A DNA stretch of 57,447 nt, taken from IMG/VR virus record IMGVR_UViG_3300012931_000003, positions 1-57,447 of that record. One strand, 5' to 3'. Source of the DNA: a virus (Duplodnaviria; Caudoviricetes). Shown in pieces: positions 11,731 to 57,447 of the stretch (position 1 is the stretch's first letter; each line of letters begins with the position of its first letter). The notes under the pieces are model-generated. The model had not been told where the DNA came from and made no database searches. It saw only the letters and a list, made by a program, of their open reading frames with translations. The translations under genes and the position numbers were made by a program.

Positions 11731-12041
11731 TCAACTATTATTATCCTTGGTGAAGTTTTTTATGTCGTATCTTGTTTTGGAGCCGTCGAGAGCTGTTACG
11801 ATGCGCATGGCTTCCCAGTTGATGAGAATCCAGAAGATCTCGCCTTTGTATTTTATTTTGGTCCATACAACGTCGTGTACACCGTGCTGTTTTTTACCTA
11901 TGCCTTTGCCTATTTTGTATTTTTCAATGTATGAAGAATGACCTGCCTGTCGTGATGATTGATGTTTATTCCTACACGTTCTTTTACGCGTTTTACTGAG
12001 TGCATATGCATGGCGTGTAGGTGGAGTTTGGAATATTTCAA
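11731..12041 (-). pseudogene. Frameshifted small gene (H-x-x-x-R-x-x-ER motif)
   Basis: TTG start overlaps the upstream TGA; MKYSKL...HSVKRVKERVG... continues in the -1 frame as ...YIEKYKIG...RIVTALDG...; span 311 nt = 3n+2. Confidence 0.45.
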
Positions 12042-18792: not shown

Positions 18793-19562
18793 ATGTCTAA
18801 ATCCGGTATACATATGAGGTTACGAGATGCAATATGTATGGATAAGCTTATATCTTGCGGTTGATCTTGTAGGGCTTGTATACGTAGCGATTAGGATCGA
18901 TGAGATAATAGGGGAACGCGGATTATAAGCGAAGTGTTAATATATCAGAGACAATATATATCAAAATATGTAGGGACTAATTCATATAGGTAGGCATACA
19001 AACTTACGTTCTGAACTGTTTAAGCCGCCATTCTGAACTGTTGAATATAGCGATTCTGAAATATAAAAGAAGTCCGGGGCGGTCTAAATAACCTGGATAA
19101 AATCACGTTGAAATAAACACAAAATTCCACGACACCCTTATATACCCCCTTTCCAAAACCCTTATATCCGGGGCGTTTGCCCTTACATCCGGGCAAAAAG
19201 AAACCCTCCCGAAGCTGGAACCCGGTCAGGGGCCGCATCTGGAGGGTAAGGTCCGCGAGGAGGAGGCAGCCCCGCCGAGGATCTTCGACGACGATTGGTC
19301 GTTACTTGGACAGTATGGCATGGAAGGGAATAGAAGTCAAGAGTGTATACAAAACAATCGACAGGGTGTATAAAAAATCATACACTTCAGCCGTGGAACC
19401 AACTACATCTATGGAAGAGTATGAAAAATCATACAGTATATCTTCGGCACCCATTCTGAATACATTAGTATACACCCGTAAGAAACACTTGTACTGTGTG
19501 TATACTTTTTCATACACTGTATAATAAATAATACATAGACGGTTCCTCGGCTATTGACAATA

Positions 19563-21200
19563 TTAAAGCTTAAAAATGAACGTGATATGTATTGACGAAA
19601 ACCTAGCCCCATGCATTTCTATTTTGAAATTATTTATATCCTCCTCCCTAAGCCTCCCCCTAGTCGTTATTATCGAATCCCCCTTACCCGTAGTCCTGAC
19701 GCCACTAGTACTAAGATCAGAATACTCATAACTCACAAAATACTTCCTCATCTCCCGCCTCCCCAAATCCCCAAAATTACCGGCAGAAAAGCAATTACAA
19801 TTGCTATTCCCCACAAAACCTTAAATATATTATGCCTAGCATAATACCCAAATGTGTTTGACATTCTATACATCAGTTCATGATGTATGCAAATCATCCC
19901 ACTGAAAACCACCACCGTACAATACACTTCATATATCACGTAGAACCTCCTCCATAAAAAGTGCCTGCAATACTCCTGTCTTCATCATAGCATGCGCTCT
20001 GCATATTATAATGTTAACCCAAACTTCCCTCATCCTCCTCTTATGCCTTCTCCTCGTTAAAATACTCATGCTATATCCTCGGTGGTAACACTGGTGGCTT
20101 ATTTGGAAATCTCTTCTTAAAATCCTCAAGGCATTCATCAGCTACTTTAAGTGCCATTGAAGTTGTAACTCCTATGCAATTTATTGTTGCCTCAAACGCC
20201 CTCATCCAAACCTCTTCATCCCTACTCAACATCTCAACCTCCAAATGCTTTCACCAATATCACCGCCAGTATTGCGCCCAGCATTCCAATCCCAACGCCA
20301 TACGCAAATCCAATCCTCATCCCGTACCTCTTCCCAATCTCAAAAGCCTTACTTATAGTCATCAGCCCACCTCATTTTCTCTCCAATTTTCTCGCATATA
20401 TCAGACCAATACTTAATACCCTCGCTGCTTTCTCTGAATAAAAACAATCCTTTCAGCCTCTCCGCGTTATCAAAAAACTCCATCTCTCCAGAATTTCTGC
20501 TTAAAATTCTGTAATTATTTATTTTTCTTATGGCTACTATTTTTTCATCCCATTTCATCTTCCTGCATTTCTCAATCTTCTCGATAACTGCCTCGTAACC
20601 ACCTAACATATGATTTCTCCTATACAGGCCACCAGACGAACGAGAAGGCACCGCCATTCAATTCCTGCATATACACCCACCACCCACCCCCGTGCTACGC
20701 AGCCTACCCCCATAAACCTCATGTCTCAGAGGCGATTCTCGTCATATCTGAGGCCGACTCCTGCAAATTCCCCAATTCCCACTCAGCCCTGCTTAGATCC
20801 CACCCCTGAGCTAATAGGTCATAGTTGAGAAGTACTCCACAAGTGTGTAGGTATGATAGCTCCCGCTCCATCCTGTCTATGGCTAATTTGGATTGTTTTG
20901 AAAGGGCTAGTATGCGGTTATTTTCCCTGGATTTCGTGTCACTCCAACTATCAAGCATATACTCTTTGTAATAATCAACTTTTCTTTTATCTTTAAATTC
21001 ACACTTTGGTTGCAATATAATATTACTCATTATTAATACCCTCCTGATTTTCCTGCGAATATATAATATTAAAATTATTATTACCAAATAATATATTATA
21101 TATATAATTCCATAATTCTTCGATATTACCATAAGACTCATCTATTATTATAATATTATCTCTTATTTTTCCTACTCCTCCTCTGCATATACATATTCTC
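19563..21200 (-). CDS. String of about 8 very small hypothetical genes, some membrane peptides (e.g. MRKYFVSYEY..., MSILTRRR..., MLSRDEEVW..., MTISKAFEIG..., MLGGYEAV..., MSNIILQPK...)
   Basis: Abutting ORFs with GGAGG-like RBSs read by hand; individual boundaries uncertain. Confidence 0.45.
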
Positions 21201-21205
21201 ATATT

Positions 21206-22477
21206 CTACCTCCTATCCTCAAATCTCAATCTATCTGGATTAAAAACAGCATCTATTGTGAAGCATGTTCCATTCCTAGACTTTGCCCTTATTATCTTGG
21301 TATCGTTAGACTCTCTTTCCCTGTGTAGAAATATCACATCGTCCGCATCCTGCTCTAATGATCCAGATTCTCTCAGCATAGAAAGTGTTGGTATTTCCCC
21401 CTCAGCTCCTCGCGTTAACTGGCTTAACACAAATACAGGCACATCTAATTCCCTTGCCAACCTCTTGCAAGCTCTGCTCACAATAGATATCTGCTCATGT
21501 CGTGGTAGTTTTGGTTGCTCAGAATCTATGAGGCCAATATAGTCCAGAATTATCATCTGACATTTATCATTACGAACCATGCGCCTTGATCTCGCCTGAA
21601 ACTGCGATAGTGTTAATCCATACTCGCAGTCATCAATAAATAATTTATCCTCTCCAGCGAGTTCGTTTCCTGCTATCATCATCTTCTCGAAAAAAGAAGT
21701 GGTGAGTGTGATCATTCCGCGAGATGATGTATCTGCCCCTGATTGAGTGCGCAATAATCTTCTCGCTAATTTAGTCCCACTCATTTCCAATGAGAAATAC
21801 CCTACGTTTTTCTTGTCGTAGAATATAGCATCTCTTGCTAGGTTGTTTAACGCAAATACCGTCTTACCAATACTTGTTCGTGCCCCGATTATTATGTATT
21901 CCCCATTCCCAAAAGACCCCAATTTGTCCTGAAGGTCTGAAAGCCTTGGCGTTATCCCTGGCAATACACCTCCTAATGCGTGCTCCTTCTCCATCTCTTC
22001 CAGGGCTGACATGAAGTGCTTCTTGAGTGGGGAGTACTCAGCATTCCCACCACTAAAAGATGCAGCATCCAAACCCCTCATAAGATCACTAAAAATATCC
22101 TGCGTATTCTCAGATACGTTTGCTATCCTGTTTGCAGCCTTTAATATTTCAGCCTTCATCCTTCTTCGAAATGACAGGCTTGTAAGTTCAAGAAAGAAAT
22201 AGTCTATATTTGCAGAGCTTGGTACCTTATCATATATTTCGAGAACCAATGGCAGTAATTCCTTATCTTTACTTTTCACTAGCTCTGAACACACAACACT
22301 CTGTGTTGGTTTATACCCTTTTGAGTGCAAGTCAATTATTATATTAAATATCTTCCTGTTATCTTCAATGACAAAGTCTTCGTCTTTTATGCGTCCTAAA
22401 TAGGTGTCAATAGTTGATGTATCTTGCATGAGCTGACTTAGAAATATCTGCTCATACTCCAAGTTGTAGAGTTCCAC
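21206..22477 (-). CDS. dnaB: Replicative DNA helicase
   Basis: GARTSIGKT, FSLEMS, ILDYIGL, LSQLTR, LRESGSLEQDAD, KSRNG. Confidence 0.95.
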   Translation of the reverse strand: MELYNLEYEQIFLSQLMQDTSTIDTYLGRIKDEDFVIEDNRKIFNIIIDLHSKGYKPTQSVVCSELVKSKDKELLPLVLEIYDKVPSSANIDYFFLELTSLSFRRRMKAEILKAANRIANVSENTQDIFSDLMRGLDAASFSGGNAEYSPLKKHFMSALEEMEKEHALGGVLPGITPRLSDLQDKLGSFGNGEYIIIGARTSIGKTVFALNNLARDAIFYDKKNVGYFSLEMSGTKLARRLLRTQSGADTSSRGMITLTTSFFEKMMIAGNELAGEDKLFIDDCEYGLTLSQFQARSRRMVRNDKCQMIILDYIGLIDSEQPKLPRHEQISIVSRACKRLARELDVPVFVLSQLTRGAEGEIPTLSMLRESGSLEQDADDVIFLHRERESNDTKIIRAKSRNGTCFTIDAVFNPDRLRFEDRR

Positions 22478-23647
22478 TTACATCCCCTTAGCCATATTCT
22501 CTTTGAACGCTTTAAGTCTTTCGAATCCAGCTTCGGTGTCTTTGCGAAGTTGTTCCTTCTCAGCATCGGTGCCATATTTCATTATCTTAAAAGCCTCAAG
22601 CTCATCTCGCGTATCGTATCCGCAATTCTCGCAGATATATAATCCGCCATTCGCTTGCACAATACTTCCGCAGTTAGGGCAAGGCTTGGATCTCACCGTA
22701 ACTTTCTTAGCTCCTGGTTTAAGAAAAGTAGTGAATGGATTTGCTGATGTTAGATATCGCGATATTCCCTTCGCGAGAAATCCTTCGCATCCATACTCAA
22801 ATTGCTCATAGCTGTCTTTGTTGTCTTGAATAACCTTGAAGTTATTTATGGCGTCTTTTATCTCGAAAAACTTGTATACTGAAACGCCCTTAACTGCGTC
22901 GGCTGATTTTGCTGGAGGCCACTGAAGTGCGGGTAGGCGACACTCGGGCGTGACTTTTTTATCTTGCCAGTATTCACGAGCGAGTTCGAGCTTCTGTGCG
23001 GGTGTGGGTTCGTCGTCGGGAATGTCGTCGAACTCTTGGGGTTCCTGGGGCTCGTCGGGAGGGAAGGCGTTGCTGTAGTCGTCGGGACCGAAAGGGGAGT
23101 CGTTGCGAATGTCTGGCTCTTGAGGCGTTTCGATTTTTGGTACCGTACTGTGAGATGTATCCGTATCCTTATCCAGATCAAATTCCAAGTCCGAATTCAG
23201 ATAGCTCGGGCGATAGTCGGCGGTAGGTGTAGGAACCTGTACGGTATGTATATCATATAGGTTTGTATCTATAGGGTACTGGTATCCTACCTGAAGCAAT
23301 AGAGATATTATATCTTTTGGAGTAGAAAACAGGCACTTGTCGATGCCTTCTTTGATTGTTTTCTTGTTCTGCCACTTTTGATGTTTCGGCCATGAAGGGA
23401 GCACGATCCACCCATTAAAATAAAAACACTTCTTGCTTGACTTAAATTTTGATAAAATTATTCCAATAGCATCTTTATTGAAACCAGTATCGAAAGACAT
23501 CCTGTCTATTGTTATCTTATACACGCCAGCTATATTAGTCAGCGTGTTAGTCATCAAATAAAGATACAAGAACTTTTCATTAGGATTAAGCGTCCTGATC
23601 CAATCATCATCCCAAAAGCTTGTGGAAATGTATCTCTGTGTTGACAT
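22478..23647 (-). CDS. Phage replication initiator (N-terminal HTH, acidic linker, C-terminal Zn ribbon)
   Basis: RYISTSFWDD...EKFLYLYLMTN...GVYKI N-terminus typical of replisome organisers; CPNC...CENC; directly upstream of dnaB. Confidence 0.75.
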   Translation of the reverse strand: MSTQRYISTSFWDDDWIRTLNPNEKFLYLYLMTNTLTNIAGVYKITIDRMSFDTGFNKDAIGIILSKFKSSKKCFYFNGWIVLPSWPKHQKWQNKKTIKEGIDKCLFSTPKDIISLLLQVGYQYPIDTNLYDIHTVQVPTPTADYRPSYLNSDLEFDLDKDTDTSHSTVPKIETPQEPDIRNDSPFGPDDYSNAFPPDEPQEPQEFDDIPDDEPTPAQKLELAREYWQDKKVTPECRLPALQWPPAKSADAVKGVSVYKFFEIKDAINNFKVIQDNKDSYEQFEYGCEGFLAKGISRYLTSANPFTTFLKPGAKKVTVRSKPCPNCGSIVQANGGLYICENCGYDTRDELEAFKIMKYGTDAEKEQLRKDTEAGFERLKAFKENMAKGM

Positions 23648-23663
23648 TATAAACCATCCTAAA

Positions 23664-23846
23664 TTATTCTACTATTTCCACTCTAGTTGATTCGTTAATC
23701 CTCGGAAGCCTTCTGGGGATTCCACACTCGTCGAGAGCCCGGTATAAAGCGTATGTGGTTATTCCGTAATATTCGCAAAGTTCCGACACTGATTTTTCTT
23801 GATACTGCCTTAAAAGTTCTTCCTTGGTTATCTTAACCTTCTTCAT
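23664..23846 (-). CDS. Small HTH DNA-binding protein
   Basis: SVSELCEYYGITTYALYRAL. Confidence 0.65.
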   Translation of the reverse strand: MKKVKITKEELLRQYQEKSVSELCEYYGITTYALYRALDECGIPRRLPRINESTRVEIVE

Positions 23847-23959
23847 TTATAGCCCTCCGTGTTAATTGTAATCATAATTCAGATTACGAAACCGGTCAAT
23901 ACCAGATCAAATAAAAATAGCCCACCCTCCGGCAGGCTATATAAACTTACTTGAATATA

Positions 23960-25289
23960 TCAGAAGGGCTGCTCATTCCTCTGGATATCCTCCCCATCCT
24001 CCGTAAACTCCACCCTCACGTCGTCCTTCCGGCAGGCGCAGGTAATCGCCAACACCTCGAATGTCTGCCCTGGATTCATCGCCGCGAGGCGCTTTGCCTC
24101 ACATATCGCATCACTATGCATCCTGTGAACCACCTTCGGCGGAATCGAGCGGTCAGAATTGAACACGTAGTAACCCTTGTTAAGATCTGCCATCTTCTTC
24201 TCCTTTTCTTCTTGTCTTAACTCTGCGGTATATCTTTCCACATCAGACAAACAAAAAATTGTTTTGTGTATGGTTCCTGCTCCTGGACATTTGCAGTAAT
24301 AATAACAAAATCCTTTTATTCCATATCCAAAATATAGTGGATTACATTGCTCTCCACATCTTTGGCAATATAACTTCAATTCCTACCTCCTATTCTTTTC
24401 CTTCGCATTGATCTCAGCCGCCCTATTAATCTCATCCTGCTTCTTGCAAAGCTTCAAAAAATCTTCCTTGAATGATATAACTGGCCCGTTTTTTCTATTT
24501 ATTGGAACAACTCCAAACATATCCAAAGCCGTGGAAAATGCCAGTGCGTCTACCACATGCTCAACGCACACCATTTTTTTACCAATTGACGCCACGGATC
24601 TCTTCCCGCAAGCCTTCAATTCTTTTGACTCATTATCCCACTCTTCAAAATCACATACCCTATCAGAGTCTCCATACTTCAAAATATTGGCTTTCATAGG
24701 CACTCCAAAATAGACAGTTGTCTATATGCTATGTTGTTGAATTTAAATGATCTCGAAGCCATTCAGCATCTACCAGATTGTCGCAGTCAAATGACCTTTT
24801 CCCGTTGGTTACAGTCCATCTCTGCCAAAAACCTTCATCTCCGGGGCCTGTGTCGTTATCATATTCAACATTCCACATAAAAAACTACCTCTCATATCTC
24901 ATCAAACTAGAATCCCACTTGTCGAACCTGTATCCTTTTCCGAGTAAAACTCCTTCCTCTATATGGAACTCGTTATTTACTGGTTTTTCAGGCTCTATCT
25001 TCTTTCCATCGTAATATCCTTCAGGGGCTTCACCCATAAATATAACCCATTTTTTATACTTAAAAGATCCGCCATTTCCAACGAATCCATCCTGCTTTCT
25101 CTTTTGCCTCAGAGATGTCTTGTTGGCTTTTGCGTCCAGAACAAGATGAGGATCGAGTCTTGCCCCGTTTATTGTAAGTTTGTCGGCCATGGCAGAAATG
25201 GACTTAGAAATAACAACCACTCCGTTGTCTATAGTCCAGCAGCATTTCGGATTTCCTCCGTGGCTTTTTACGTCAGCATTAGTGCCCAC
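23960..25289 (-). CDS. Hypothetical genes (23960-24379, 24383-24703, about 24730-24879 MWNVEYDND..., 24885-25289)
   Basis: Co-oriented, packed ORFs with RBSs. Confidence 0.5.
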
Positions 25290-25785
25290 AGTATGCCTCC
25301 ATGTAGTGATTTATCATCTTTATGTAGTAATGGCATACGCCATGTTTATCAACCCAATTCGTACCTTTGTGATATGCGGAAAATGCAAGATCTTTATTTC
25401 TAAACTTGTCTAATTCTTCTTTGTATTCAAGTGCAGATATTCTGGTATAGTCATAAGGGTTATTGGGATTATACTCACCCCACTTTTTAACTCTCTCTGC
25501 GTGTATTTTTTTTGTCTCATGTAAACCCATAGGACTTACGTCTAGTTTATTTGGATGGTTCTTAAATTTCATCATTGAAGATTCTGCATAACAAATAGCA
25601 GCCAAGTCGAGAACTTCAACTTGTGCGTAATTGGCTGCCATGAAGAAAGCATCATAGTATTCTTCTTTAAGCAGCGGTATTTCTATTTTGCACATTTCTA
25701 TAAATATTTCGTATTTTACAAATGGATGATAAAGTTTAGCCGAGAACGTGAGAAGCGGAATTATTAGAAATAATAGCCTTCTCAA
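25279..25785 (-). CDS. Lytic transglycosylase (SLT)-like protein with N-terminal signal
   Basis: AAICYAESS (catalytic ES), PMGL, SAYHKG. Confidence 0.6.
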   Translation of the reverse strand: MRRLLFLIIPLLTFSAKLYHPFVKYEIFIEMCKIEIPLLKEEYYDAFFMAANYAQVEVLDLAAICYAESSMMKFKNHPNKLDVSPMGLHETKKIHAERVKKWGEYNPNNPYDYTRISALEYKEELDKFRNKDLAFSAYHKGTNWVDKHGVCHYYIKMINHYMEAYCGH

Positions 25786-25888
25786 ATTTACCTCAAACTT
25801 AGGGAGTCTTTCCTCCCTGCCAGCCGATAGCAGCTTCTAATCTGCGACAATAACCACAATGCCATCCTCATGGTATTCAAAACGCAGA

Positions 25889-25962
25889 TGCCCCCGCATT
25901 GATTTGAACAATGGACCCGCTGATTATGAGTCAGCCGCTCTAACCAACTGAGCTACAGGGGC
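25889..25962 (-). tRNA. tRNA with CAU anticodon, most likely tRNA-Ile2 (lysidine); no encoded CCA
   Basis: GCCCCTGTAGCTCAGTTGGTTAGAGCGGCTGACTCATAATCAGCGGGTCCATTGTTCAAATCAATGCGGGGGCA folds as a cloverleaf; C4:G69 and C5:G68 pairs (TilS determinants), A73. Confidence 0.9.
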
Positions 25963-26070
25963 TAAAAACAGAATAACACATCCGCCCCAAAACTGACAGT
26001 CTCAAGGCGGATAACTTGCATAGTGCCCATGCCCGTATAGTCACGGGCTACGATCTACCGATGCCGAAGG

Positions 26071-26343
26071 TTACGCGAGCGGGTTGAGGTCGCCCTGCTC
26101 GGGCGCAGCGGCGGACTGCTCGGCCTTCTTGCCGCGCGGCTTCTTCTCCCTGGTCACGTCGAGGGCGTCGATGAGCTTGTAGATCTTGTCCACGGTGGTC
26201 GTGGCGACTTCCGCGTACGAGCGGTCGCCGACGATGAAGGGCTTCGGGCCGTTCTCGTCGCCGTAGAGCATATCGGACTTCTTGACGGGCTTCTTGGAAA
26301 TGTCACAGACCTGCTCAGTGACTTTCTTGGTAATCGTTCCCAT
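26071..26343 (-). CDS. Possible Lsr2-like/nucleoid-type protein
   Basis: KKVTEQVCDIS...FIVGDRSY...helix, then KKPRGKK; AGGAGG RBS; GC-rich codons. Confidence 0.4.
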   Translation of the reverse strand: MGTITKKVTEQVCDISKKPVKKSDMLYGDENGPKPFIVGDRSYAEVATTTVDKIYKLIDALDVTREKKPRGKKAEQSAAAPEQGDLNPLA

Positions 26344-26392
26344 AGGAACCTCCTGAGAAATTTTCGAACACCAAATCAACGATCTGGTTTAC

Positions 26393-26479
26393 CGGAGCCT
26401 GGAAGATTCGAACTTCCGTAACCATTGCTGGTTATACAGTTTTCAAGACTGCCACCTTCGGCCTCTCGGTCAAGGCTCC
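26393..26479 (-). tRNA. tRNA-Ser(UGA); no encoded CCA
   Basis: GGAGCCT acceptor, GCAGT-CTTGAAA-ACTGT anticodon arm, long variable arm, GGAAG-TTCGAAT-CTTCC T arm, G73. Confidence 0.92.
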
Positions 26480-26492
26480 ATCTATAAAATAA

Positions 26493-27008
26493 ACCGGCAC
26501 TGGCGCCTGACCGGGCGATGGTCCATGTCACCCAGGCTGAATTTTTAGGACTTCCAGTGTGGCACTCTCCAATGCCGGTAGTATCCAAAATCAACCCCGG
26601 TTTCCACGGGGCCAGGAGTTTCACCTGTTGGCTCCTACGTTTCGGGCCGCTAAGCCTCGCCGGTAGGTATCACTCGTTGAATCGGTTTCTTTCCGTCTTG
26701 CGGTTTTCCGATCCATTGTTACCCATACGAATGGGTAGATATTTTCTACACGAAGATTCCCATCGGCAACGCAACTGCCTGCGTGGCGGTCACAAATTCT
26801 AGGCCGATTTATTGGGATGTATTAGGCCCGTTATGCGGAACGCACTAATTCATCTCCATATCTGTAGCAATTACTCTAAGCTGAGAGGGACCACTCTGTA
26901 AGGTTCCATAGTAATGGTCAGTTAATGCGTGGTAAACACCACGCCTTCCTGGGCTCCCAGGGATAAAGTCACTTCAATGTTGGCACCTCCCATCCACAGC
27001 GCTGCATG
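26493..27008 (-). ncRNA. Candidate large structured non-coding RNA(s) of unknown class
   Basis: About 515 nt with no credible ORF and dense, nested hairpins; lies directly 5' of tRNA-Ser in the same orientation. Confidence 0.55.
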
Positions 27009-27215
27009 TTAGGCCGCCCAACCGGGAACCACATTCCCGTGGTATGCCTTCCCAACTATGAGCCTGCGCCGGATCTTCCGGCAAGCGCTGGTAGCGTGAT
27101 CGGCTATGGCGTATTCAATGGCAACGGTTTTGAGACGCGTCACCTCAGGGATAACCGCGTCAATGGGAGCGGTAAAGAACGCCAGAAAGGCCGATGCAAC
27201 GCAAATCAGGATCAT
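27009..27215 (-). CDS. Small protein with hydrophobic N-terminus; first gene of the RNA operon
   Basis: GAGGAG RBS; promoter TTGACA(27318-27313)-17-TAGTAT upstream. Confidence 0.5.
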   Translation of the reverse strand: MILICVASAFLAFFTAPIDAVIPEVTRLKTVAIEYAIADHATSACRKIRRRLIVGKAYHGNVVPGWAA

Positions 27216-27314
27216 GCAGACTCCTCATCTTTTTTTTACAGGGCAAATGTAAGTTGGACTGGCGCCAGCATCACTTACGTGACTTCTTGATACTACACCT
27301 TCATAAATATATTG

Positions 27315-27575
27315 TCAATCTTTTTCTTCTTGTTTTGAAAAGTTTTTTATTCCGGCATTTATGAATGCTTTATTAGCAGCCTTTTCCATCTTCTCAAGAA
27401 CGTCTTCCATTGTAACTATTGATTCTCGCTTGCGAGGAGTCATCTTTCCTAGGAACCAGTTTTTGTATGTGTTAATATGTACTCCGAGATATACGGCTGC
27501 TTCTTCTTGAGAAAAGCCAGCAAGGCCCTGGAGTCGAATAAGCTTGTCTTGAAACTCGCTATTCTTTGACTTCAT
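27315..27575 (-). CDS. XRE-family HTH regulator
   Basis: GFSQEEAAVYLGVHINTYKNWFLGKMTP. Confidence 0.85.
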   Translation of the reverse strand: MKSKNSEFQDKLIRLQGLAGFSQEEAAVYLGVHINTYKNWFLGKMTPRKRESIVTMEDVLEKMEKAANKAFINAGIKNFSKQEEKD

Positions 27576-27831
27576 ACTTCCTCACAAGATTCGCATAGTT
27601 CTTAGGCTCGTGCTCTTCATCAAGTCTGACCACAACGACACAGTCGCTTCCGAGGCCCCACCGGATAGCAAGAAAACACCCAGGAACTAGCTCTGCTTCG
27701 CTATAGGTTGAAAGTCTTGCATCTCCAGCGAAGCATTTTGCCGCTTTTTCAGCAAAAGCCACCTCTGCGTTTATCTCATCAACTCTGACTTGCCTCATTG
27801 CATGCCTCCTGTCTATTTTTCTATAATACAT
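27559..27831 (-). CDS. Hypothetical protein (likely start MRQVRV)
   Basis: AGGAGG RBS before the internal ATG. Confidence 0.5.
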   Translation of the reverse strand: MYYRKIDRRHAMRQVRVDEINAEVAFAEKAAKCFAGDARLSTYSEAELVPGCFLAIRWGLGSDCVVVVRLDEEHEPKNYANLVRKYEVKE

Positions 27832-27901
27832 GTCTTATTATGTTTTGTCTACTGTTGACAACATCCTTTCTATATGATACCTTGTTCTAACGGAGGAAAA
27901 G

Positions 27902-28336
27902 ATGGCAGACATCAACCATGTAACCATAGTAGGAAGACTAACCAGGGACGCCGAACTCAATTACACAGCCACCGGTCAGCCGGTATGCAAATTTTCCATT
28001 GCCGTTAACCGACAGAGAAAAGAAGGAGATAAGTGGGTCGATGAGGCCAGCTTTTTCGATGTAACCCTATGGGGGAAGCGCGGAGAATCTGTGAACCAGT
28101 ACTTATTGAAGGGTAAACAGATCGGTGTTGAAGGGGAACTTCGCCAGGACCGATGGATTAAGGAAGGTCAGAACCGATCCAAAGTGGAAATCATGGCTAC
28201 CAACGTCCAACTTCTGGGCGGTGGAAATAAGGACTCGCAGTCTTCGCCTTCTGCTCAGCCGGAAAAGAGCGCAAACGCGTCGTCAACTGCTAGCGGCAAT
28301 TCCGACGAAGGATTTGCAGACGAAATTCCGTTCTGA
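27902..28336 (+). CDS. ssb: Single-stranded DNA-binding protein
   Basis: NHVTIVGRLTRDAEL OB-fold N-terminus; acidic DEIPF tail. Confidence 0.97.
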   Translation: MADINHVTIVGRLTRDAELNYTATGQPVCKFSIAVNRQRKEGDKWVDEASFFDVTLWGKRGESVNQYLLKGKQIGVEGELRQDRWIKEGQNRSKVEIMATNVQLLGGGNKDSQSSPSAQPEKSANASSTASGNSDEGFADEIPF

Positions 28337-28343
28337 TATTGTC

Positions 28344-28775
28344 ATGCAAAAAAACCGCCGTTATTGCTTGGTAGTAATACTTCCCCAGGTTTCCTTTGAG
28401 AAGCTTGGGGAGATTTGTACTAAATACAATATACTCAATCCAAAAAACCAGAATTACCCAAACGTATCCGACATCATTCGCATGATGCTTTACTACCAAA
28501 TACGTCTAAATAAAGTCAAATGTCTTTCGCCAGTTGATACTTCTCATAGATTCAAGCAGCTTTTAGACTCCATTGGTTTCGATAAAATAGAATTCAAGCC
28601 AATGAAGGATGACATAGGCCGAGATAAATGTGAAGAAAGAAGAACCATAAGAGTTACAGATTACTTGCACGAATCAGTCCTGGCTCTTTCCGATCTCTTG
28701 AAAGTGGATTACGGCGACATTGTAAGATGTTGCGCCGACTTTATTATTACTGCGTATAATGGAGGCATAAAATGA
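28344..28775 (+). CDS. Putative tandem ribbon-helix-helix protein
   Basis: NVSDIIRMML and RTIRVTDYLHESV...YGDIVR patterns. Confidence 0.45.
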   Translation: MQKNRRYCLVVILPQVSFEKLGEICTKYNILNPKNQNYPNVSDIIRMMLYYQIRLNKVKCLSPVDTSHRFKQLLDSIGFDKIEFKPMKDDIGRDKCEERRTIRVTDYLHESVLALSDLLKVDYGDIVRCCADFIITAYNGGIK

Positions 28776-30058
28776 ACCGTGAAGAATATGAGAAGGCTAA
28801 GGCTGCCGACCTAAAGGCTAACAAGATCGTAATAGACAGAGTCCCACCGAACGCCGAAGTTCCAGAAATGTTCATTGAGAAAATTACAAGATTCGAAATC
28901 ACCATGGATAAGCTCTGGAAATACCCGGATGGAAAAAAGCTCGTAACTTTCGGCGGCGGTACTATCATGATGATGCCTTCATTCTCCCAAATGCTTTCCG
29001 AGGCGGGCGGGATAATGTTGAAAGATCCGATAGTTCAAAAGGTGATGTCATATCACGAAATACCTATGCCGAGCGGCATCATCAAGAAGAACCTGTACTG
29101 CTCCCGTGTGGTAGGGAAAATAGACTACAATAAGACCACCGACTCGGGTGCAAAGCATTTCGGTTTTTACGCGAGTGAAATAGATATCGACAATCTTTTC
29201 GCTCGTCAGAACGTGAACGACCTTGAGCTTATTGGCTCAACGAAAAATGGTCGTCCGGTAACCGAAGCTGGTACGCTCTACAACACCGGAAACGAGTACA
29301 AGGACAGCGTTGCTGCTTACAAGGAAAAAATACGCCTGGGCCAACATGCCTACCAGACCCTTATTACGAGGCTTCGCTCTCATGGCGTTGAAAAAGCCCT
29401 CGGAATGGACCACCTAAAAGTTGCAAACGTCGGTGGAGTTATATACATCCAGAGGGTTACCCCTGACGCATCGAATCCAACCGTTAGGAAAATGCTGCTG
29501 GTTTCAGCCGCGAATGATATGACGGGCGGAAGCATACAGCGGCTTATCCCCGGACCGCAGGAGTCATCCGTAGTTTCGGAACCAGAGACAATCAACGTTA
29601 CCGAAAACGATATTCCGGTTACTCAGCCCGTCGAGCCTGAAGAAGAGCTTGACGTTGACGACATCCCCTCCGATGATTTAGATGAAGACGTTCCGCTGTG
29701 GCACGGAGAGGAAGAGCAACCTGCCGATGGGGGGCCACTTAAAACAGCCGTAATTTCCTGGCAGGCTTCCGAGTCGGTAAAGAATCAGATCTGCGCTGAC
29801 TTCATAGACGCCACAATCGATTCAAATGAATCAGAGGAATTCTACAAAGCCGAGATCGAGGCAATAAAACTCCTTGCTGACGGCCACGAAGATGACGGAA
29901 TTGTCGCCATGGCAGATTCAGTAAGGTTCACCAAAACTTACGCGGGCTTCAACGAAACTCAATCAAACTTCGTAAAGGAATCCGTAAGGATAAAAAAAAT
30001 AGTTAACTGTTCTGCTATTTTGCAAAACATTACCGTTTTGGTAAAAGGCAAGAAATAG
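28772..30058 (+). CDS. Unknown protein, possibly a ssDNA-annealing/recombination protein
   Basis: 428 aa; globular N-domain plus acidic linker; function inferred only from position between ssb and SbcCD. Confidence 0.35.
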   Translation: MNREEYEKAKAADLKANKIVIDRVPPNAEVPEMFIEKITRFEITMDKLWKYPDGKKLVTFGGGTIMMMPSFSQMLSEAGGIMLKDPIVQKVMSYHEIPMPSGIIKKNLYCSRVVGKIDYNKTTDSGAKHFGFYASEIDIDNLFARQNVNDLELIGSTKNGRPVTEAGTLYNTGNEYKDSVAAYKEKIRLGQHAYQTLITRLRSHGVEKALGMDHLKVANVGGVIYIQRVTPDASNPTVRKMLLVSAANDMTGGSIQRLIPGPQESSVVSEPETINVTENDIPVTQPVEPEEELDVDDIPSDDLDEDVPLWHGEEEQPADGGPLKTAVISWQASESVKNQICADFIDATIDSNESEEFYKAEIEAIKLLADGHEDDGIVAMADSVRFTKTYAGFNETQSNFVKESVRIKKIVNCSAILQNITVLVKGKK

Positions 30059-30117
30059 TTTTTAAGGTCCCGGTAACCAATGCTGGCGAAAGGGCATGTT
30101 TTTAATGGAGGCGCGTA

Positions 30118-30838
30118 ATGTCATTTAGAACGGCAAAGCCAGACGATGATAGTCCTGGTTGGTTTAAGCTAGGAATAATATGCAGCGTTAAGAATCACGG
30201 ACACAAAGAACCAATAAGGGATAACGCTATTATTGTGTGGTTCAATGATAACCACTTCATAGATGAATATGGGAATTATTGGGACGAAGCAAAACCGTGC
30301 GATTTTTGGGAGCCATTAGAAAATGAGATAGTGGCGTGTTTCGGATTCGGGAATGCGATAGAAAGCATGTCCTACCCAATGGTAGGCGTTTACCGGGCAT
30401 CTGATAACGGGCATCACATAATAAGATGCTGCTCTGTATACGAGATGATAAAATGCGATAACGTAGCACGTCTGCAATATCCAGATCATCGCGTAATAGA
30501 CTGTGCCTGCACCGTCGAAGAACTCAAGAAAAGAACCGACTGGATCTAATTTTTTACTGGAGTACGCTGTGAGCGAAATAGAAGATGGGAGAGGGATTGA
30601 ATGCCCGCAATGTGGAATGAAGTGGTTCGGATTTGTAAACAGGCGAGAGGTATGTGCATGTGGGATGTACGTAAAATGGCATGTAAAGGCATCTTCTAAT
30701 AAAAGCATGCCTGTCGCCGAGTGGATAGCGCCTGATAACCAAGAAATTGGTAAGACAGCCTCAAAAATACTTGAAGGCCAGGGCTATAAATGGGACGAAA
30801 CAAAAAAGATGTGGTTATCACCATATCTGAAGAAATAG
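30118..30838 (+). CDS. Two hypothetical genes (30118-30549; about 30570-30838 with Zn ribbon CPQC...CAC)
   Basis: ORF track and RBS. Confidence 0.5.
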
Positions 30839-30859
30839 CAAATACTACTGGAGGCAACC

Positions 30860-33800
30860 ATGTATTTCATTCACGCTCCCGAGATTCATTTTTCACCAAG
30901 CAAGGCCAAAGAGTGCCTGTATGCGCTCGAAGAAATGTACTTTCACATAGCTGGAATAAGAGCTAGGCAAGTAGTATCGCACGATCAATCAAATATCTAC
31001 GTCTTCTTTACAGGCGATCTTTACGATCATGCCATGCAGAATACCGACAGGTCAGGCTTCGTAGCTCTCCACAAGGCCCTGGAGAAGATTGCGTCGATCG
31101 CATTCGTGATATACCAGTACGGAACAAGAAGCAAGCACGACATGGAAGGGAGCTACGAAGTTCTACGCATATACGACAGGTCGGAAGTGCTGAGCGTAAA
31201 CAATCGAACATTCGCTAACGATGAAATATCCGTATTCTCATTTGAAGAGCCGCAGATGTCCGAGTTTCGCGGAGAGTCAGTCGAAGAAATATGGTCGAAC
31301 ATTCAGGCTCACGAGAAAAAGCTGTGCCTGATGGCCGCCGAGTTTTTCAGAGAAAATCCAGGCAAGCGCCACATCCTCATCGGACACGGAGCAGTTCTGT
31401 GCGATGCTACGGTGAACAACCCCGCCGTGGTATTCGGTAACTACCATGTATCAGAAACCGAACTCGCTGAAACCGGCGCCGACATCGCCTTGTGGGGCCA
31501 TCTTCACCAGCCCTACATATTCTCAAAACTCCGTGGTGGGTACACGAGATCCCTAGCTCACAACTACAGCGATTGCGGCTTCCTCCCTGGGTTCTCAGTT
31601 TACGATGATTCGTATGAGGAATCCGTAATAAGGCTCAAGGAGCTTCCGGCTCGTTTCGGGATCAACGTGAACATCCCCGATGACGGCGATCCGGTCATCG
31701 AGCTGAATAAACAGGCGGTAGCACTTCTTTCTTCAGGTGAAAAAGTTGCAATACGGCCGGACGTGAGCATTCCTCACGACATAAACGATTCAACTCACCG
31801 TAACCAAATATCAGAACTCATCCTTTCGAAATATCCTGGAGTTGTTCTTGACGCTCCGAGGATCATCGAAAGAACAGGATCGAAAGTGCGGAACGCTGAT
31901 ATCGCAAACGACACCTCGTACCGAGCGCTTTGCAAAAAAGTTTACCCTGATTGGGACGAAGAAGACCTCTTGGAAATGGACAAGCTTGAAGAGGAAGACA
32001 TCAAGGAAGGAATAATCCCCGTCAAGAAAGAAATCTCGCTGAAAAGTATATCAGCTCGCGGATATATCCCGCTGAAAAACGGTATAGGGTCGGACGAATT
32101 CAGGGTTGACTTCGACCAATACGGCAGATGCGTTCTTGGGCTTGTAGCTCCCGGAGGATTCGGGAAATCATCCACAGGAGATCTCGTATTTCCGCACCCT
32201 GAATGCCTATCTCAGCCAGAGAGCAAAGCGAATCTTTTCTTCCTTCAGGATTCATACATCATCAACAAATTCGACGTTGATGGTCACGACGTAGAGTGCA
32301 AAATCATCGGCGGGCCAGAAGGAAAAGGAGCCGCATATTTCTGCTACGTTGACGGGCAGGAAAAGTGCAAGAAGGGAGTCCGCGAGTATAAGGAAGTAGT
32401 AAACTCCATATTTGGTACCATTCATGAATTCGCGCTTGTTATGTCGAGAACTCAGTTCAAGTTTGCGCGCGTGGTTGATGGGGCTAACTGTAACCCTGAC
32501 ATAAAGTACGCCGCGAACAAGGAAATGAAGGATCTTTACGCTCCACTGTGCGGAAGCGACAAGACAAAAACCATGCTTCGCTGCAAGGCTCGCGCGGACG
32601 AGTTCAAGAAGACTTACGAGCGCCTTGAGCACGAGATATCTGGCATCCGGTCTAGCATAGATAATCTCGTAACATCAACAGGAGACATTAATCTGCTTAC
32701 TGATGAACTTATAGAAAAAGAAGACGATCTGTCAGTAATAAGAGAAGGTCTTGAAATAATAATCTGTAATGGAAAGGACGCAGCCGCAAACATCGAATCG
32801 GCAAGGTCGGCATCAAAGAAAAACGAAGCAGAAAAGGAAAAACGCAGGACTGACATCACGAAGATGTCTGAGCTTTCCGTCAAGGCGGAAGAGTGCTCAG
32901 GAAAGATCAAGGCTCTGTCTGAAAAGTCTCAGAAACTCGAATCGAACAAGAAACTCATAGCAGAGGACGACCAGCGCATAGAGTTCAATTCTTCGAATGA
33001 GTCCTCCGGGGTCAGGAACTCAGAGCTCAGGAACAAGTACGACGCAGAACTAAACGCGTGGAATACGAAGCTTTCATCGGTAAGAACGGAGGTTTCGTCC
33101 AGGAATGATGCTCTCATGGCTAAGTTTAGGGCTGAGTCTTCGAAGGCCCTTGAAGAACACTCAGCGCTTGTCCGTAAGTACAACTCCGATCTTTCAGAAT
33201 GGAACGCAGAGCTTGAGCGAGTGCAATCAGAAGCACGCAAAAAAAACACGTATGAGGCAAAGAAGTACGAAGACGCCATCCGTATTTACCGACAAGCAAA
33301 ACAGTCGGCAGAAATGTCGATCAACGAATCAGAGCACAAGATATCGGTAAACTCTTCATCTTGCCCAAATTGCGGGTATATCAGCCCCGACGCTAAAAAA
33401 ATCATCGAGGATGAGGCTAGAAATATAGAAGCAAAGCGCTCGGAGCTTGCTTCACTTTTTGAGCCTGTTGCTCCGTCCGAAGTCATAGTACCGGCAACCC
33501 TCGACAGGCCAAAACCATTGCCTGTAGCGGAATACGTTGCTCCTGCTGAACCAGTCCTAGAACCTATTCCTGAATCCATAGAAGATCCCAAGCCTTCGGA
33601 GCCTCAGTACGAGCCGGTAGCCCAGGCTATTCCTGCTTCAATCGACCGGGCTTCTGTCTTGCGCGAGATTGAGGAGGCGTCTGGAGCCTCGTCGTCAATA
33701 GCAACACTGGAAGATCTTCGGACTTCCATCAATGATCAGATAGACGAACTCCAGTCCCGAAGGTATGACATCGACGAAAGCGCCGAAGAGAAACTCAGGA

Positions 33801-34492
33801 TGGCCGAGGCTGAAAAATCAAGGCTTGAGACCCTGTATCTTTCAAAGATGTCGGAATCGAAGAGCATGGAATCATCCGTGTCTTCCATAAAGGAAAAAAT
33901 CGCGGCTGCGAAGCAGAGCGAAGATAGCCTCAATGCTCTCAAAAAGAATATGTCAGACAAGTCACTCGAAAAAGAATCGGCTGAGACTCTTCACCTTCGC
34001 TGGAAGAAATATCAGGCAGCCTGGGACCGAAACGGAATACCCGCGCGGTTCGTAGAACTTGCCGCCCCAATGATAGATTCGATGGCGAACGAGATTCTTT
34101 CTCAGTTCTATCCCGACATGTTCATCGAGACTTGCACTACGAAGGAAGATTCAAATGGAGAAACAGCCGACACGTTCGAAGTTATGGTGTATAACACCAG
34201 AGAAGGAACAAAACAGAAACTTTCGTCACTCTCAGGAGAGCAAACAAACTTTGTTCTTTCCGCAATGTTCTTCGCATTCAGAAAGAAGTACGAAGAAAAC
34301 ACCGGTCGCAAGATCAACTTCGTATTCGAGGATGAACAGGATGACCATGTTTCGCTTTTAATGCAGCCTGCGTACTGGAACATGGTGCAATACCAGCAGC
34401 AGCTTGAAAACAAGTTGCGTATATGCACTTCTCACTCTGCCGAGTTCCCGAATAGGATTGAGAACGTGATAGATTTGGAGGCTATGAAATGA
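30860..34492 (+). CDS. Fused SbcD(Mre11)-SbcC(Rad50) nuclease-ATPase
   Basis: Metallophosphoesterase motifs EIH, GDLYD, KHD, GH, GHLH; Walker A APGGFGKSS; coiled coil with CPNC zinc hook; LSGEQ signature; FVFEDE Walker B; TSH. Confidence 0.88.
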   Translation: MYFIHAPEIHFSPSKAKECLYALEEMYFHIAGIRARQVVSHDQSNIYVFFTGDLYDHAMQNTDRSGFVALHKALEKIASIAFVIYQYGTRSKHDMEGSYEVLRIYDRSEVLSVNNRTFANDEISVFSFEEPQMSEFRGESVEEIWSNIQAHEKKLCLMAAEFFRENPGKRHILIGHGAVLCDATVNNPAVVFGNYHVSETELAETGADIALWGHLHQPYIFSKLRGGYTRSLAHNYSDCGFLPGFSVYDDSYEESVIRLKELPARFGINVNIPDDGDPVIELNKQAVALLSSGEKVAIRPDVSIPHDINDSTHRNQISELILSKYPGVVLDAPRIIERTGSKVRNADIANDTSYRALCKKVYPDWDEEDLLEMDKLEEEDIKEGIIPVKKEISLKSISARGYIPLKNGIGSDEFRVDFDQYGRCVLGLVAPGGFGKSSTGDLVFPHPECLSQPESKANLFFLQDSYIINKFDVDGHDVECKIIGGPEGKGAAYFCYVDGQEKCKKGVREYKEVVNSIFGTIHEFALVMSRTQFKFARVVDGANCNPDIKYAANKEMKDLYAPLCGSDKTKTMLRCKARADEFKKTYERLEHEISGIRSSIDNLVTSTGDINLLTDELIEKEDDLSVIREGLEIIICNGKDAAANIESARSASKKNEAEKEKRRTDITKMSELSVKAEECSGKIKALSEKSQKLESNKKLIAEDDQRIEFNSSNESSGVRNSELRNKYDAELNAWNTKLSSVRTEVSSRNDALMAKFRAESSKALEEHSALVRKYNSDLSEWNAELERVQSEARKKNTYEAKKYEDAIRIYRQAKQSAEMSINESEHKISVNSSSCPNCGYISPDAKKIIEDEARNIEAKRSELASLFEPVAPSEVIVPATLDRPKPLPVAEYVAPAEPVLEPIPESIEDPKPSEPQYEPVAQAIPASIDRASVLREIEEASGASSSIATLEDLRTSINDQIDELQSRRYDIDESAEEKLRMAEAEKSRLETLYLSKMSESKSMESSVSSIKEKIAAAKQSEDSLNALKKNMSDKSLEKESAETLHLRWKKYQAAWDRNGIPARFVELAAPMIDSMANEILSQFYPDMFIETCTTKEDSNGETADTFEVMVYNTREGTKQKLSSLSGEQTNFVLSAMFFAFRKKYEENTGRKINFVFEDEQDDHVSLLMQPAYWNMVQYQQQLENKLRICTSHSAEFPNRIENVIDLEAMK

Positions 34493-34701: not shown

Positions 34702-34988
34702 GATTCATTCTGACTGACAAGCAGCGCGATGTGCTTGACGAAATAAAAAGAATAAAGCTTACAGGTCGAGAACCTACAATTCTCGGCCTGTCAACTAAGT
34801 TCAAAATATCTCGATCCTCCATTAAATCTCATTGCAGGGCAATATGCGATAAGGGGTATATGCGAATGGAGATGGTTGAGATAGCTACCAGGGGAATTCC
34901 GTCTAAGTTGAAATTCACTGTGCTTGAAGAAAGCCTTGCTATGGATATAGTAAGAAAAATGAAGGATGGAAATAATGGGAATGGGTAA
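34698..34988 (+). CDS. LexA-type N-terminal winged-HTH protein (no peptidase domain)
   Basis: LTDKQRDVLDEI...PTILGL...SIKSHCRAICDKGY. Confidence 0.7.
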   Translation: MRFILTDKQRDVLDEIKRIKLTGREPTILGLSTKFKISRSSIKSHCRAICDKGYMRMEMVEIATRGIPSKLKFTVLEESLAMDIVRKMKDGNNGNG

Positions 34989-35571
34989 GCCTTACGCATC
35001 ACGCAAGCCAATGTGGGAACATCCAGAATCAGACTTCTATGAGACTCCATATTCGCTAATATGGGAGCTTGCAAATCATACAGACGAGCTAAAAGGATTT
35101 TCAAAATTCAGAGACCCTTGCTGCGGAAAACACAATATTAAAACATCATTAGAATCAAGTTCTCTTGACAAAATATTCGATGTATCAGAAGACGACCTAA
35201 GCATAAATGGATACGACTTCCTTGACGACGAATCAAAGCACGGATTCATAATATCAAATCCTCCATTTTCACTTTTCGATGAATTTGTATTTCACGCAAA
35301 GGCTGTATCAGAGAAGGTAGCTTTCATTGGAAGGCCGGACGCATTCGGAGCATACAAAAGAAATGACGCAGGTCTGTGGAAAAATCTAAAATCATGCTAC
35401 ATCTTTGACAGAAAAGTTGACTACCGTACCCCTCATAGAGAAGACGGGTTGTTTCACGTTGGGGCTATGGTGACGTGCTGGCTTATATGGGATATGTCAT
35501 ATAAAGGAAAGCCATCTCTTGAAGTATTGCGAGTCAACAAATACGCTAAACTTGGTCCGTTCGAGGAGTAA
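34966..35571 (+). CDS. DNA amino-methyltransferase (N6-adenine-type)
   Basis: DFYETP, DPCCG, ISNPPF. Confidence 0.8.
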   Translation: MEIMGMGKPYASRKPMWEHPESDFYETPYSLIWELANHTDELKGFSKFRDPCCGKHNIKTSLESSSLDKIFDVSEDDLSINGYDFLDDESKHGFIISNPPFSLFDEFVFHAKAVSEKVAFIGRPDAFGAYKRNDAGLWKNLKSCYIFDRKVDYRTPHREDGLFHVGAMVTCWLIWDMSYKGKPSLEVLRVNKYAKLGPFEE

Positions 35572-57200: not shown

Positions 57201-57447
57201 TTAGAAAGTCTGCTGGAGCTGGGCCAATATTAATGGAGGGCGATTTTCAGTATAAGATTGATTATGATATAGCCATTACTGATTTTTATGAAAGGACCAT
57301 ATCGGCAACGTCGAGAGACTGGCGTGGAGTCGCGTGGTCTCCGGAACTTGGGTTGTTTGTGATGACCGCATACGGCAGTACTGTTTGTGCAACATCCCCA
57401 GACGGAATAACATGGACTGAAAGGACCATATCGGCAACGTCGAGAAA
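54227..57447 (+). CDS. Large tail tip/receptor-binding protein, N-terminal part (Tal-like hub, FN3-like domain); continues through the junction into 1..1203, about 1435 aa in total
   Basis: ATG at 54227 follows the previous stop directly (MIVAKLYTVNKEFIDAVPC...). It is absent from the ORF track, consistent with having no stop in the window. 57332-54227=3105 is a multiple of 3. FN3-like segment ISWIGTADSYLVEYKRS...SGTEYLFRIYSV; position after TMP and Dit. Confidence 0.8.
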   Translation, partial: MIVAKLYTVNKEFIDAVPCVSLKWTRQSNKEYTFTVEFSSKPPDNFYYVVCIDQDSSIKFIPSGYVASSSSDTEFTMNSWETALESEGWIPDDWEWWDSKLLSTVIADHCYGFRKIGCAGLSQLEAAVSTSQVQMAEIDDGNGSVYLDTYGYFVESSETEIAYYSSGYAIYKIEIPDEARRSGMVLRWSDSVGTTTDISVQFRWSDSATDYSGEYTTEESPARSDNVNPNETVGIDIPESSLAYLFVKFNLKYDSGEDGENYENEITTEDDIVYYGKTPLLSAFEVIYRVATSVVPGTITVDATQTLTADIHDKSDLLESLKAIAEAYDISFLCTIDSEGEISLNAYSDYGDNIRDTAGCLSDIKNATVSDKTETLDIYEGCHCFGSGDGIDRLYAFVKMDGVDVPKRITTFEDDDITSISDLQTAGSEYLEDENSVSSTVAFEYYGTPLVSLHDNVAISVLGTVYENKISEESITCDDNGVSTRKYTIGTKAYPFRKLYGYSFSGTYLKTPVSPSCVTTKEVDGTWYISWIGTADSYLVEYKRSDATVWSRTTVTTNYCIVSNIVSGTEYLFRIYSVLDGLLSIASTTVSTAGNSEDQLTPDEKTQYRIDWVKIASEVSVYDALAIEYGMTEEKTAYDTSFANLANYLNGGTTWVSGIPLWLSDDQLNTTTIIDYDVWTSMWTSYSNSLIALEEAIRLLFSISISITSKSAIRNRAGIISPSAISVSAIKSDGSVYSGRFIISGTPDGITYVDLYSSTTDESTKLYNIPLKLTIESVEYYSLAIRIRLYKSGGTSIKLAEDSCIISLSQDTTPIYFGSMNSAPTTGLELVNDYYFDSNLVGNGGGVIRYYNGSVWVEATTSWAMYANAVSSAMTDMMVWVGSTGGTIAAANAVFESIVASSAFINKLSTANQYSAQMCDDGITPRMEIDWDNAVATFRSGDQEYITKITENKIIAYEGAGLARRSVSIESGSVNWYNSPDGGIDELIGRLFRKSAGAGPILMEGDFQYKIDYDIAITDFYERTISATSRDWRGVAWSPELGLFVMTAYGSTVCATSPDGITWTERTISATSR
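57332..57447. repeat. 116-bp terminal direct repeat identical to nt 1-116 (circular assembly overlap)
   Basis: 57332-57447 (gcgtggtctcc...cgagaaa) matches 1-116 base for base, and joining keeps the 54227 ORF in frame. Confidence 0.9.

Follow-up and report, generated by a model that had tools for sequence, protein, structure and literature searches.

Large phage RNAs that lie beside tRNA genes, GOLLD and ROOL among them, belong to the least understood RNAs, and these two are suspected of targeting, in trans, a protein of the host or phage. The transfer RNA (tRNA) cluster of phage T4 yields two stable RNAs, species 1 and 2, of unknown function, which are freed from a shared precursor by tRNA-processing enzymes. 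Phages also carry morons, autonomous promoter-gene-terminator inserts of deviant composition, of which the classic ones hold a protein gene and are expressed from prophages. GOLLD and ROOL are large non-coding RNAs of phages and prophages, often near tRNA islands and of unknown function, and form cage-like assemblies of unknown purpose (10.1101/2024.12.08.627333). Here we examine a stretch of 528 nucleotides (nt) at 26481–27008 on the minus strand of virus record IMGVR_UViG_3300012931_000003; the window is the whole record of 57,447 nt, a complete phage genome with direct terminal repeats. Like GOLLD and ROOL, the candidate is phage-borne and non-coding and adjoins a tRNA gene, tRNA-Ser, with tRNA-Met near. 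A sequence-only reading had proposed its 5' 419 nt (26590–27008) as a hairpin-dense RNA co-transcribed with the phage tRNAs. The feature is real, well delimited, outside known families and present in an RNA library. The reading that we favour, and hold tentatively, is that the stretch is a discrete non-coding RNA made together with tRNA-Ser. Co-transcription with the tRNAs we infer from the gene order; the strand, ends, processing and trans-acting function of such an RNA are likewise proposed from the layout.

The absence of a credible open reading frame (ORF) in the stretch was borne out. Across 26481–27008, the minus-strand frames contain 6, 8 and 9 stops and the plus-strand frames 9, 4 and 9, with all three stop types in every frame, so no single codon reassignment opens a frame. 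The longest ORF over the stretch encodes 94 amino acids (aa) on the plus strand (26518–26802), and neither this protein nor a homologue of it was found in a collection of 5.8 billion proteins; the minus-strand ORFs are small (27–34 aa) and lack clear ribosome-binding sites, and all five that were looked up were absent from the same collection. Nine stop-free frame pieces gave no Pfam and no PHROG family at E ≤ 1. The 3-nt periodicity of guanine-plus-cytosine (GC) content was nil in the stretch, with a maximum window score of 0.23, equal to the shuffle mean, compared with 0.5–0.6 in the neighbouring 90-aa ORF. A self-blast within the window found no second copy of the stretch. The direct repeats or iterons in 26300–27400 were only short two-copy matches, and a reading as an origin or array was dropped.

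Scans against Rfam agreed with the view that no known family is present. With cmscan and Rfam 15 at gathering scores, two tRNAs alone matched in the whole window, and scans at E ≤ 10 of 25800–27700 and of 26475–27020 alone (546 nt, lax filters) gave no convincing family inside the stretch. The sole matches there at E ≤ 10 were CRISPR-DR60, below its gathering score, and a meaningless fragment of a long non-coding RNA. The hallmarks of transfer-messenger RNA (tmRNA), RNase P, signal recognition particle RNA and group I or II introns, which the sequence-only reading could not see, did not emerge from these scans either: no such family matched at E ≤ 10, group-II-D1D4-1 (RF01998) gave 0 matches at that threshold, and ARAGORN at its default and 90% thresholds called no tmRNA and no extra tRNA. 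No 6S RNA, riboswitch or T-box family was found at E ≤ 10 over the stretch. The ROOL model RF03087 searched alone (574 positions, gathering score 99.1 bits) had no match at E ≤ 10 anywhere in the 57-kb record, a negative that rests on the model search and for which the control genomes gave no match either. The GOLLD model, which has a conserved 3' domain, had no match that reached the gathering score over the full window, nor one at E ≤ 10 within 25800–27700 or 26475–27020; the Rfam scans cover it because GOLLD is an Rfam family (10.1101/2024.12.08.627333). Since the candidate fails these model tests, it is not a member of GOLLD or ROOL. For IMG/VR, 8495 covariance models of candidate structured RNAs (csRNAs), with motifs of 29–151 nt, have been published (PMC10690425).

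Sequence of the stretch was found in environmental RNA. The wetland metatranscriptome run X3 contains 46% of the sampled words from 26381–27320, and 11 of its contigs aligned to 22000–32000. Four of these are at least 99% alike (26184–26334, 26630–26813, 26788–27007 and 27086–27235), and all four fall inside a GC-rich island at 25979–27283; the contig over 26788–27007 differs at 2 positions, including C>A at 26829. Within 22000–32000, and among the matches listed, RNA-library contigs at least 99% alike are confined to the island. The ORF-free stretch is covered over 26630–27007. Word depths of the contigs are 2–6.7, and 24 of 30 bins have no depth at all. Among the matches listed, the remaining X3 sequences are tRNA-like or SSB-like, with 1–8 differences; the phage also encodes an SSB gene. 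Presence of the stretch in a transcript pool, as the sequence-only reading would have it, is upheld for an environmental library, with strand and ends proposed from gene order. The sequencing runs that contain the stretch are labelled wetland and freshwater metagenomes; the shares for runs X4 and X5 are small (0.14 and 0.10), and no habitat is named from them. Coverage gaps (DNA runs X2, X4 and X5 over 26676–27009, X3 over 26481–26629) are not evidence of absence or divergence.

The features of the unit are laid out along the minus strand as follows, promoter-like and terminator-like sites being consensus matches:

27290–27318, minus strand: sigma-70-like promoter site TTGACA-17-TAGTAT, pointing into the unit (10/12 consensus matches)
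27009–27215, minus strand: 68-aa ORF with a hydrophobic N-terminus and GAGGAG upstream
26481–27008, minus strand: ORF-free candidate RNA of 528 nt, from the stop of the 68-aa ORF to 1 nt before tRNA-Ser
26592–26614, minus strand: terminator-like hairpin GGCCCCG-UGGAAAC-CGGGGUU followed by GAUUUUGG (consensus scan)
26392–26480, minus strand: tRNA-Ser, anticodon UGA (ARAGORN; Rfam tRNA 53.2 bits)
26071–26343, minus strand: 90-aa ORF with GC at third codon positions (GC3) of 0.89 and AGGAGG upstream
25979–26013, minus strand: terminator-like 16-pair hairpin where the GC-rich island ends (consensus scan)
25889–25962, minus strand: tRNA-Met, anticodon CAU, just downstream of the island (ARAGORN; Rfam 68.8 bits)

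The two sequence landmarks that the sequence-only reading had placed around its candidate are where it put them: the TTGACA-17-TAGTAT site lies at 27318–27290 and points inward, and tRNA-Ser(tga) follows the stretch at 26480–26392. tRNA-Met lies about 0.5 kb beyond tRNA-Ser. The site at 27318 is among seven minus-strand sites of the genome with a perfect TTGACA and at least 10/12 matches. The other six (6174, 11734, 13353, 14033, 14301 and 14890) lie in the leftward region of 6–15 kb with spacers of 16–17 nt, and the one at 11734 scores 12/12; by consensus matching, the six together with 27318 look like a set of sigma-70-type early promoters.

The island of about 1.3 kb has a GC content of 0.537, compared with 0.436 for the genome and 0.508 for its ORF-free gap, and is bounded by the promoter-like (27318–27290) and terminator-like (26013–25979) sites; below 25850, GC returns to about 0.37–0.43. 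The GC3 of the 90-aa ORF exceeds that of every one of the 58 ORFs of at least 100 aa (mean 0.47, maximum 0.835). The GC content of the island and the GC3 of the 90-aa ORF both deviate from the genome, which suggests horizontal acquisition of the entire cassette, including the tRNA, the small ORFs and the spacer. Neither the 68-aa nor the 90-aa ORF has a Pfam or PHROG family, tblastn against phages gave no match for either, and a protein-atlas look-up of the 90-aa ORF returned nothing informative (best score 0.88, under the bar of 0.9).

We then turn to the fold, for which all helices are single-sequence predictions made in three contexts: the stretch alone, with the upstream ORF added, and with the tRNA added. 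On the minus strand, 26590–27008 has a minimum free energy of –142.8 kcal/mol (z = –3.03), and none of 100 dinucleotide shuffles folded as well; for 26481–27300 the z-score is –4.20. The stretch contains 6 perfect local hairpins (stem of at least 5, loop of 3–8) where 1.89 are expected, a count reached by 12 of 1000 shuffles. The window 26461–26879 on the minus strand, with z = –4.21, ranks second among 100 GC-stratified 419-nt windows of the same genome (8 shuffles each; mean z = –0.74, standard deviation 1.33). By these folding calculations, the stretch appears moderately more structured than expected by chance. The following elements were seen or predicted:

26961–26948, 26944–26927, 26784–26769, 26749–26735, 26737–26720 and 26611–26595, minus strand: the six perfect hairpins (sequence scan)
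26867–27005, minus strand: predicted 5' domain, long-range helices around hairpins 26961–26948, 26944–26927 and 26917–26906 (pair probabilities 0.75–0.98 with 27008–26481 alone)
26814–26857, minus strand: predicted 11-bp hairpin (probability 0.97 in all three contexts)
26657–26769, minus strand: predicted three-way junction with hairpins 26737–26720 and 26715–26678 (0.92–0.97 in all three contexts)
26489–26579, minus strand: tRNA-proximal structured segment (predicted fold)

The closing helices of the 5' domain shift once upstream sequence is added; its tetraloop hairpins 26961–26948 and 26944–26927 persist in all three contexts with a probability above 0.9. The three-way junction is closed by an 18-bp helix (26769–26750 with 26677–26657). 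A 12-bp helix, 26812–26801 with 26501–26489, is predicted in two of the three contexts (probabilities 0.95 and 0.72); the domain that it encloses measures 324 nt and stops 8 nt short of the tRNA. All seven stems named in the sequence-only reading can be read in the sequence. Within the predicted ensemble, the nested ATCGG...CCGAT stem was retained (probability 0.97), and the outer ATCGGC/GCCGAT and CCTAC/GTAGG pairings face competition from the 18-bp long-range helix, which the ensemble favours.

On the reading we favour, the stretch would be the middle third of a short, strongly promoted transcription unit, rich in GC and foreign in composition, and would be structured and untranslated. This unit would run on the minus strand from the promoter-like site through the 68-aa membrane-type ORF, the 528 nt, tRNA-Ser(UGA) and the 90-aa ORF to the terminator-like hairpin at 26013–25979, and its ORF-free part would give rise to a discrete RNA of about 400–530 nt. 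The 3' end could be formed in either of two ways. The terminator-like hairpin at 26614–26592 is a possible 3' end of an RNA of about 420 nt, which would fit both the span first proposed and the RNA contigs; alternatively, an RNase P cut at the 5' end of tRNA-Ser (26480/26481) would leave 528 nt. Stable RNAs beside phage tRNAs are generally made by such 3'-end routes. During infection such an RNA would likely act in trans, by binding protein or as a decoy. A further step, which we consider rather unlikely to hold in full, would make the stretch the first example of a new class: structured RNAs of about 0.4–0.5 kb in uncultivated wetland and freshwater phages, borne on a mobile GC-rich tRNA cassette, released with the aid of tRNA processing, sufficiently abundant in nature for assembly from a metatranscriptome, and trans-acting on a protein of host or phage.

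Relatives of the phage were found, and they inform on the flanking ORFs. The large terminase (TerL) is at most 34% identical to any homologue in GenBank phages. A sister phage is represented by a 56,506-nt Logan/ENA contig that carries both a TerL of 91% identity (P0004) and a 69-aa protein (P0125) 60% identical to the 68-aa ORF, with conserved ends; P0125 is the sole homologue of that ORF found. The 90-aa ORF has two JGI homologues of 89% and 70% identity, on contigs of 1.3 and 2.2 kb. By these homologues, both small ORFs look real. A wetland contig over 27049–27309 shows 29 differences and three 1-nt indels; two of the indels fall in the 68-aa ORF, 4 nt or less apart, and offset one another. 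In X5, a run labelled freshwater metagenome, a contig over 26476–26660 differs at 7 of 185 nt without gaps, and another over 26129–26279, within the 90-aa ORF, differs at 16 of 151 nt; that the 185 nt next to the tRNA have diverged less hints at constraint. Farther relatives (TerL identity 62–66%) are on contigs of at most 20.6 kb that end short of the region, and their gene order differs. In the window, an SLT-domain gene at 25279–25785 adjoins tRNA-Met. In two IMG/VR loci (L019 and L020, TerL identity 62%), the SLT-domain gene instead lies directly upstream of a homologue of window ORF 34966–35571, and because of this different placement we consider the gene order around the tRNA region not conserved.

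The homologues of the RNA for which the sequence-only reading had looked to viral metagenomes did not appear among the phage, IMG/VR and metagenome loci searched. Distant blastn of 26380–27320 against 50,697 phage records found no match, and nhmmer and blastn of 26481–27300 against TerL-anchored loci (22 from IMG/VR, 31 from metagenomes) found nothing. Protein-anchored scans of IMG/VR with the 86-aa helix-turn-helix protein, the 90-aa ORF, the 68-aa ORF and the 428-aa protein returned 0 relatives each. A 20-nt piece of tRNA-Ser hit 16 IMG/VR loci through tRNA similarity alone, and a 20-nt piece of the candidate RNA hit 0. Alignment of the 90-aa ORF to metagenome contigs gave 0 matches, as did genome-contig searches with the 90-aa ORF and with TerL, and 38 whole viral records yielded chance matches of 14–20 nt alone.

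Several observations weigh against a discrete functional RNA. Since no homologue of the RNA was obtained, no base pair has comparative support. The plus strand of 26590–27008 also folds well (z = –2.01), and z-scores of –3 or lower occur in 4 of the 100 genome windows, so the proposed folding excess stands against shuffles and is not unique within the genome. The hairpin signal is not unique either, with at least 6 perfect hairpins in 67 of 544 genome windows. Sub-windows of 111–146 nt have z-scores between –0.28 and –1.98, and because they score so weakly, most of the fold signal must come from long-range pairs. The comparison that hints at constraint is between two X5 contigs that are possibly from different genomes. 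The RNA evidence comes from a single low-depth run, selected because it holds the stretch and aligned over 22000–32000 of the phage, and its contigs carry no information on strand, ends or level. Finally, because the whole island is GC-rich and foreign, the stretch could be intergenic DNA of the donor that was carried along.

This last point leads to the main rival, in which the stretch is a transcribed but functionless spacer, intergenic or long-decayed DNA from a donor of higher GC that is transcribed by virtue of its position between a strong promoter and a tRNA. We regard this as possible, if on the doubtful side. It would account for the foreign composition of the island (53.7% GC compared with 43.6%, and the GC3 of the 90-aa ORF), for fold and hairpin statistics that lie within the upper tail of ordinary genome windows, and for the lack of an Rfam family and, in the collections searched, of homologues outside near relatives. 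It accounts less readily for 528 nt of dead weight, uncommon where about 90% of a phage genome is coding, for the absence of residual codon periodicity, for z-scores of –3 to –4.2 on the transcribed strand, and for the smaller divergence from a relative in the 3' 185 nt (7 differences) than in the adjacent ORF (16 in 151).

The stretch might instead act in cis, as a leader or intercistronic regulator that sets how much transcription continues past the 68-aa ORF to tRNA-Ser and the 90-aa ORF, or that stabilises the upstream mRNA as a long 3' untranslated region. Read-through control has some anatomical support, because the terminator-like hairpin at 26614–26592, located 111 nt upstream of the tRNA, competes in the predicted ensemble with a pairing between 26601–26591 and 26540–26530, as in an attenuator; the RNA contigs, spanning 26630–27007 and both ORFs, are also compatible with it. 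We nevertheless judge cis action improbable, since no riboswitch, T-box or leader family matched at E ≤ 10, an attenuator of about 400 nt would be a long one, the U-tract of the hairpin (GAUUUUGG) is weak, and evidence of alternative 3' ends is absent.

It is highly improbable that 26685–26722 is an RNA anti-CRISPR of the SRU or Racr type, which mimics a solitary CRISPR repeat. The idea stems from the CRISPR-DR60 match, the sole non-tRNA Rfam match of note in the stretch, which covers the full model (1–37) on the plus strand as matched; the site lies within the predicted three-way junction and reads on the minus strand as a small hairpin followed by AAAGAAAC. Viral SRUs are intergenic and often just downstream of a promoter (PMC10651486). 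With 21.9 bits, far under the gathering score of 45, and E-values of 0.18–0.62, the match falls short of significance. The promoter-like site is about 600 nt away, a second repeat is absent from the region, and such a mimic would account for 38 of the 528 nt.

Hidden coding or a divergent known RNA (small peptides, a recoded gene, a decayed tRNA array, an intron, RNase P RNA or tmRNA) is scarcely credible: the minus-strand ORFs of 27–34 aa and a 'tRNA-Arg' at 26586–26671, which ARAGORN called at 70% as one of 16 calls in 1.6 kb, would speak for it, but the small ORFs have neither protein-collection entries nor clear ribosome-binding sites, all three stop types occur in every frame while the long phage ORFs are readable under table 11, ARAGORN at 70–80% gives noise alone with no extra tRNA or tmRNA at 90% or default thresholds, and no Rfam family matched at E ≤ 10.

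Elsewhere in the genome, other ORF-poor regions and unusual genes were noted. The description of the genome as gene-dense is roughly true, with about 90% coding in a crude greedy ORF cover. That cover leaves seven further gaps of at least 150 nt, several near the right end, where 54227–57275 contains ORF-free gaps of 337, 350, 824 and 606 nt. At the left end, 1–833 is a tandem repeat with a period of 129 nt (43 codons), 6.5 copies and 89–93% matches, inside a 393-aa ORF (22–1203). The replication genes lie on the minus strand (a DnaB-like helicase at 21206–22477 and a DnaD-like loader at 22478–23647). Between ORF 20719–21141 and the helicase gene, 21016–21170 is very AT-rich with many A/T palindromes, and windows there reach the genome maximum of 14 perfect hairpins per 419 nt; this region may be a replication origin. 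A second ORF-poor region, 18814–19560, has a 22-nt tandem repeat (19009–19060), several TGTATAC-like words and a GC-rich patch (19140–19320), and the folding z-score of 19125–19320 against shuffles is only –1.16. A 1210-aa protein (30860–34492) has a calcineurin-like phosphoesterase domain at its N-terminus. Its C-terminus carries LSGE-type and acidic FEDEQDD motifs, and its alignment retrieved a fragment at one locus alone (L018, 55–56% identity); judged by eye, the protein looks like an Mre11-Rad50/SbcCD-type fusion.

Compared with known systems, the putative RNA made with tRNA-Ser resembles several and coincides with none. It shares with T4 species 1 and 2 a position as a non-tRNA RNA beside a phage tRNA, and by analogy may share their route of production; the T4 RNAs are much smaller. 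The unit recalls a moron in having its own promoter-like and terminator-like sites and deviant GC and GC3, and in being present in the RNA library when the flanking 9 kb is not (contigs at least 99% alike, among the matches listed). It differs from a moron in carrying a tRNA and a long non-coding stretch, and a search of the phage for a tyrosine or serine integrase found none. With SRUs and Racrs it shares an intergenic, phage-carried position and a short repeat-like element of hairpin plus tail, whereas a Racr is a small RNA that directly follows a promoter of its own and does not lie within a structured stretch of 0.5 kb. GOLLD and ROOL remain the nearest comparison, in genomic niche and size class. 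The candidate matches neither Rfam model, and the elaborate secondary structure that marks their kind is backed by covariation over many sequences, compared with a single-sequence prediction here. It is also shorter, at about 420–530 nt, where the ROOL model has 574 positions and GOLLD often exceeds 800 nt (10.1101/2024.12.08.627333). Its present value is that of a well-delimited candidate, with one sequence, a modest fold signal and a named sister contig. If the reading is true, it would offer a smaller object for study than GOLLD or ROOL, and a third, unrelated large RNA in the niche beside a tRNA, with signs of expression in situ, would suggest that phages have repeatedly adopted the pairing of a tRNA with a large RNA as a strategy.

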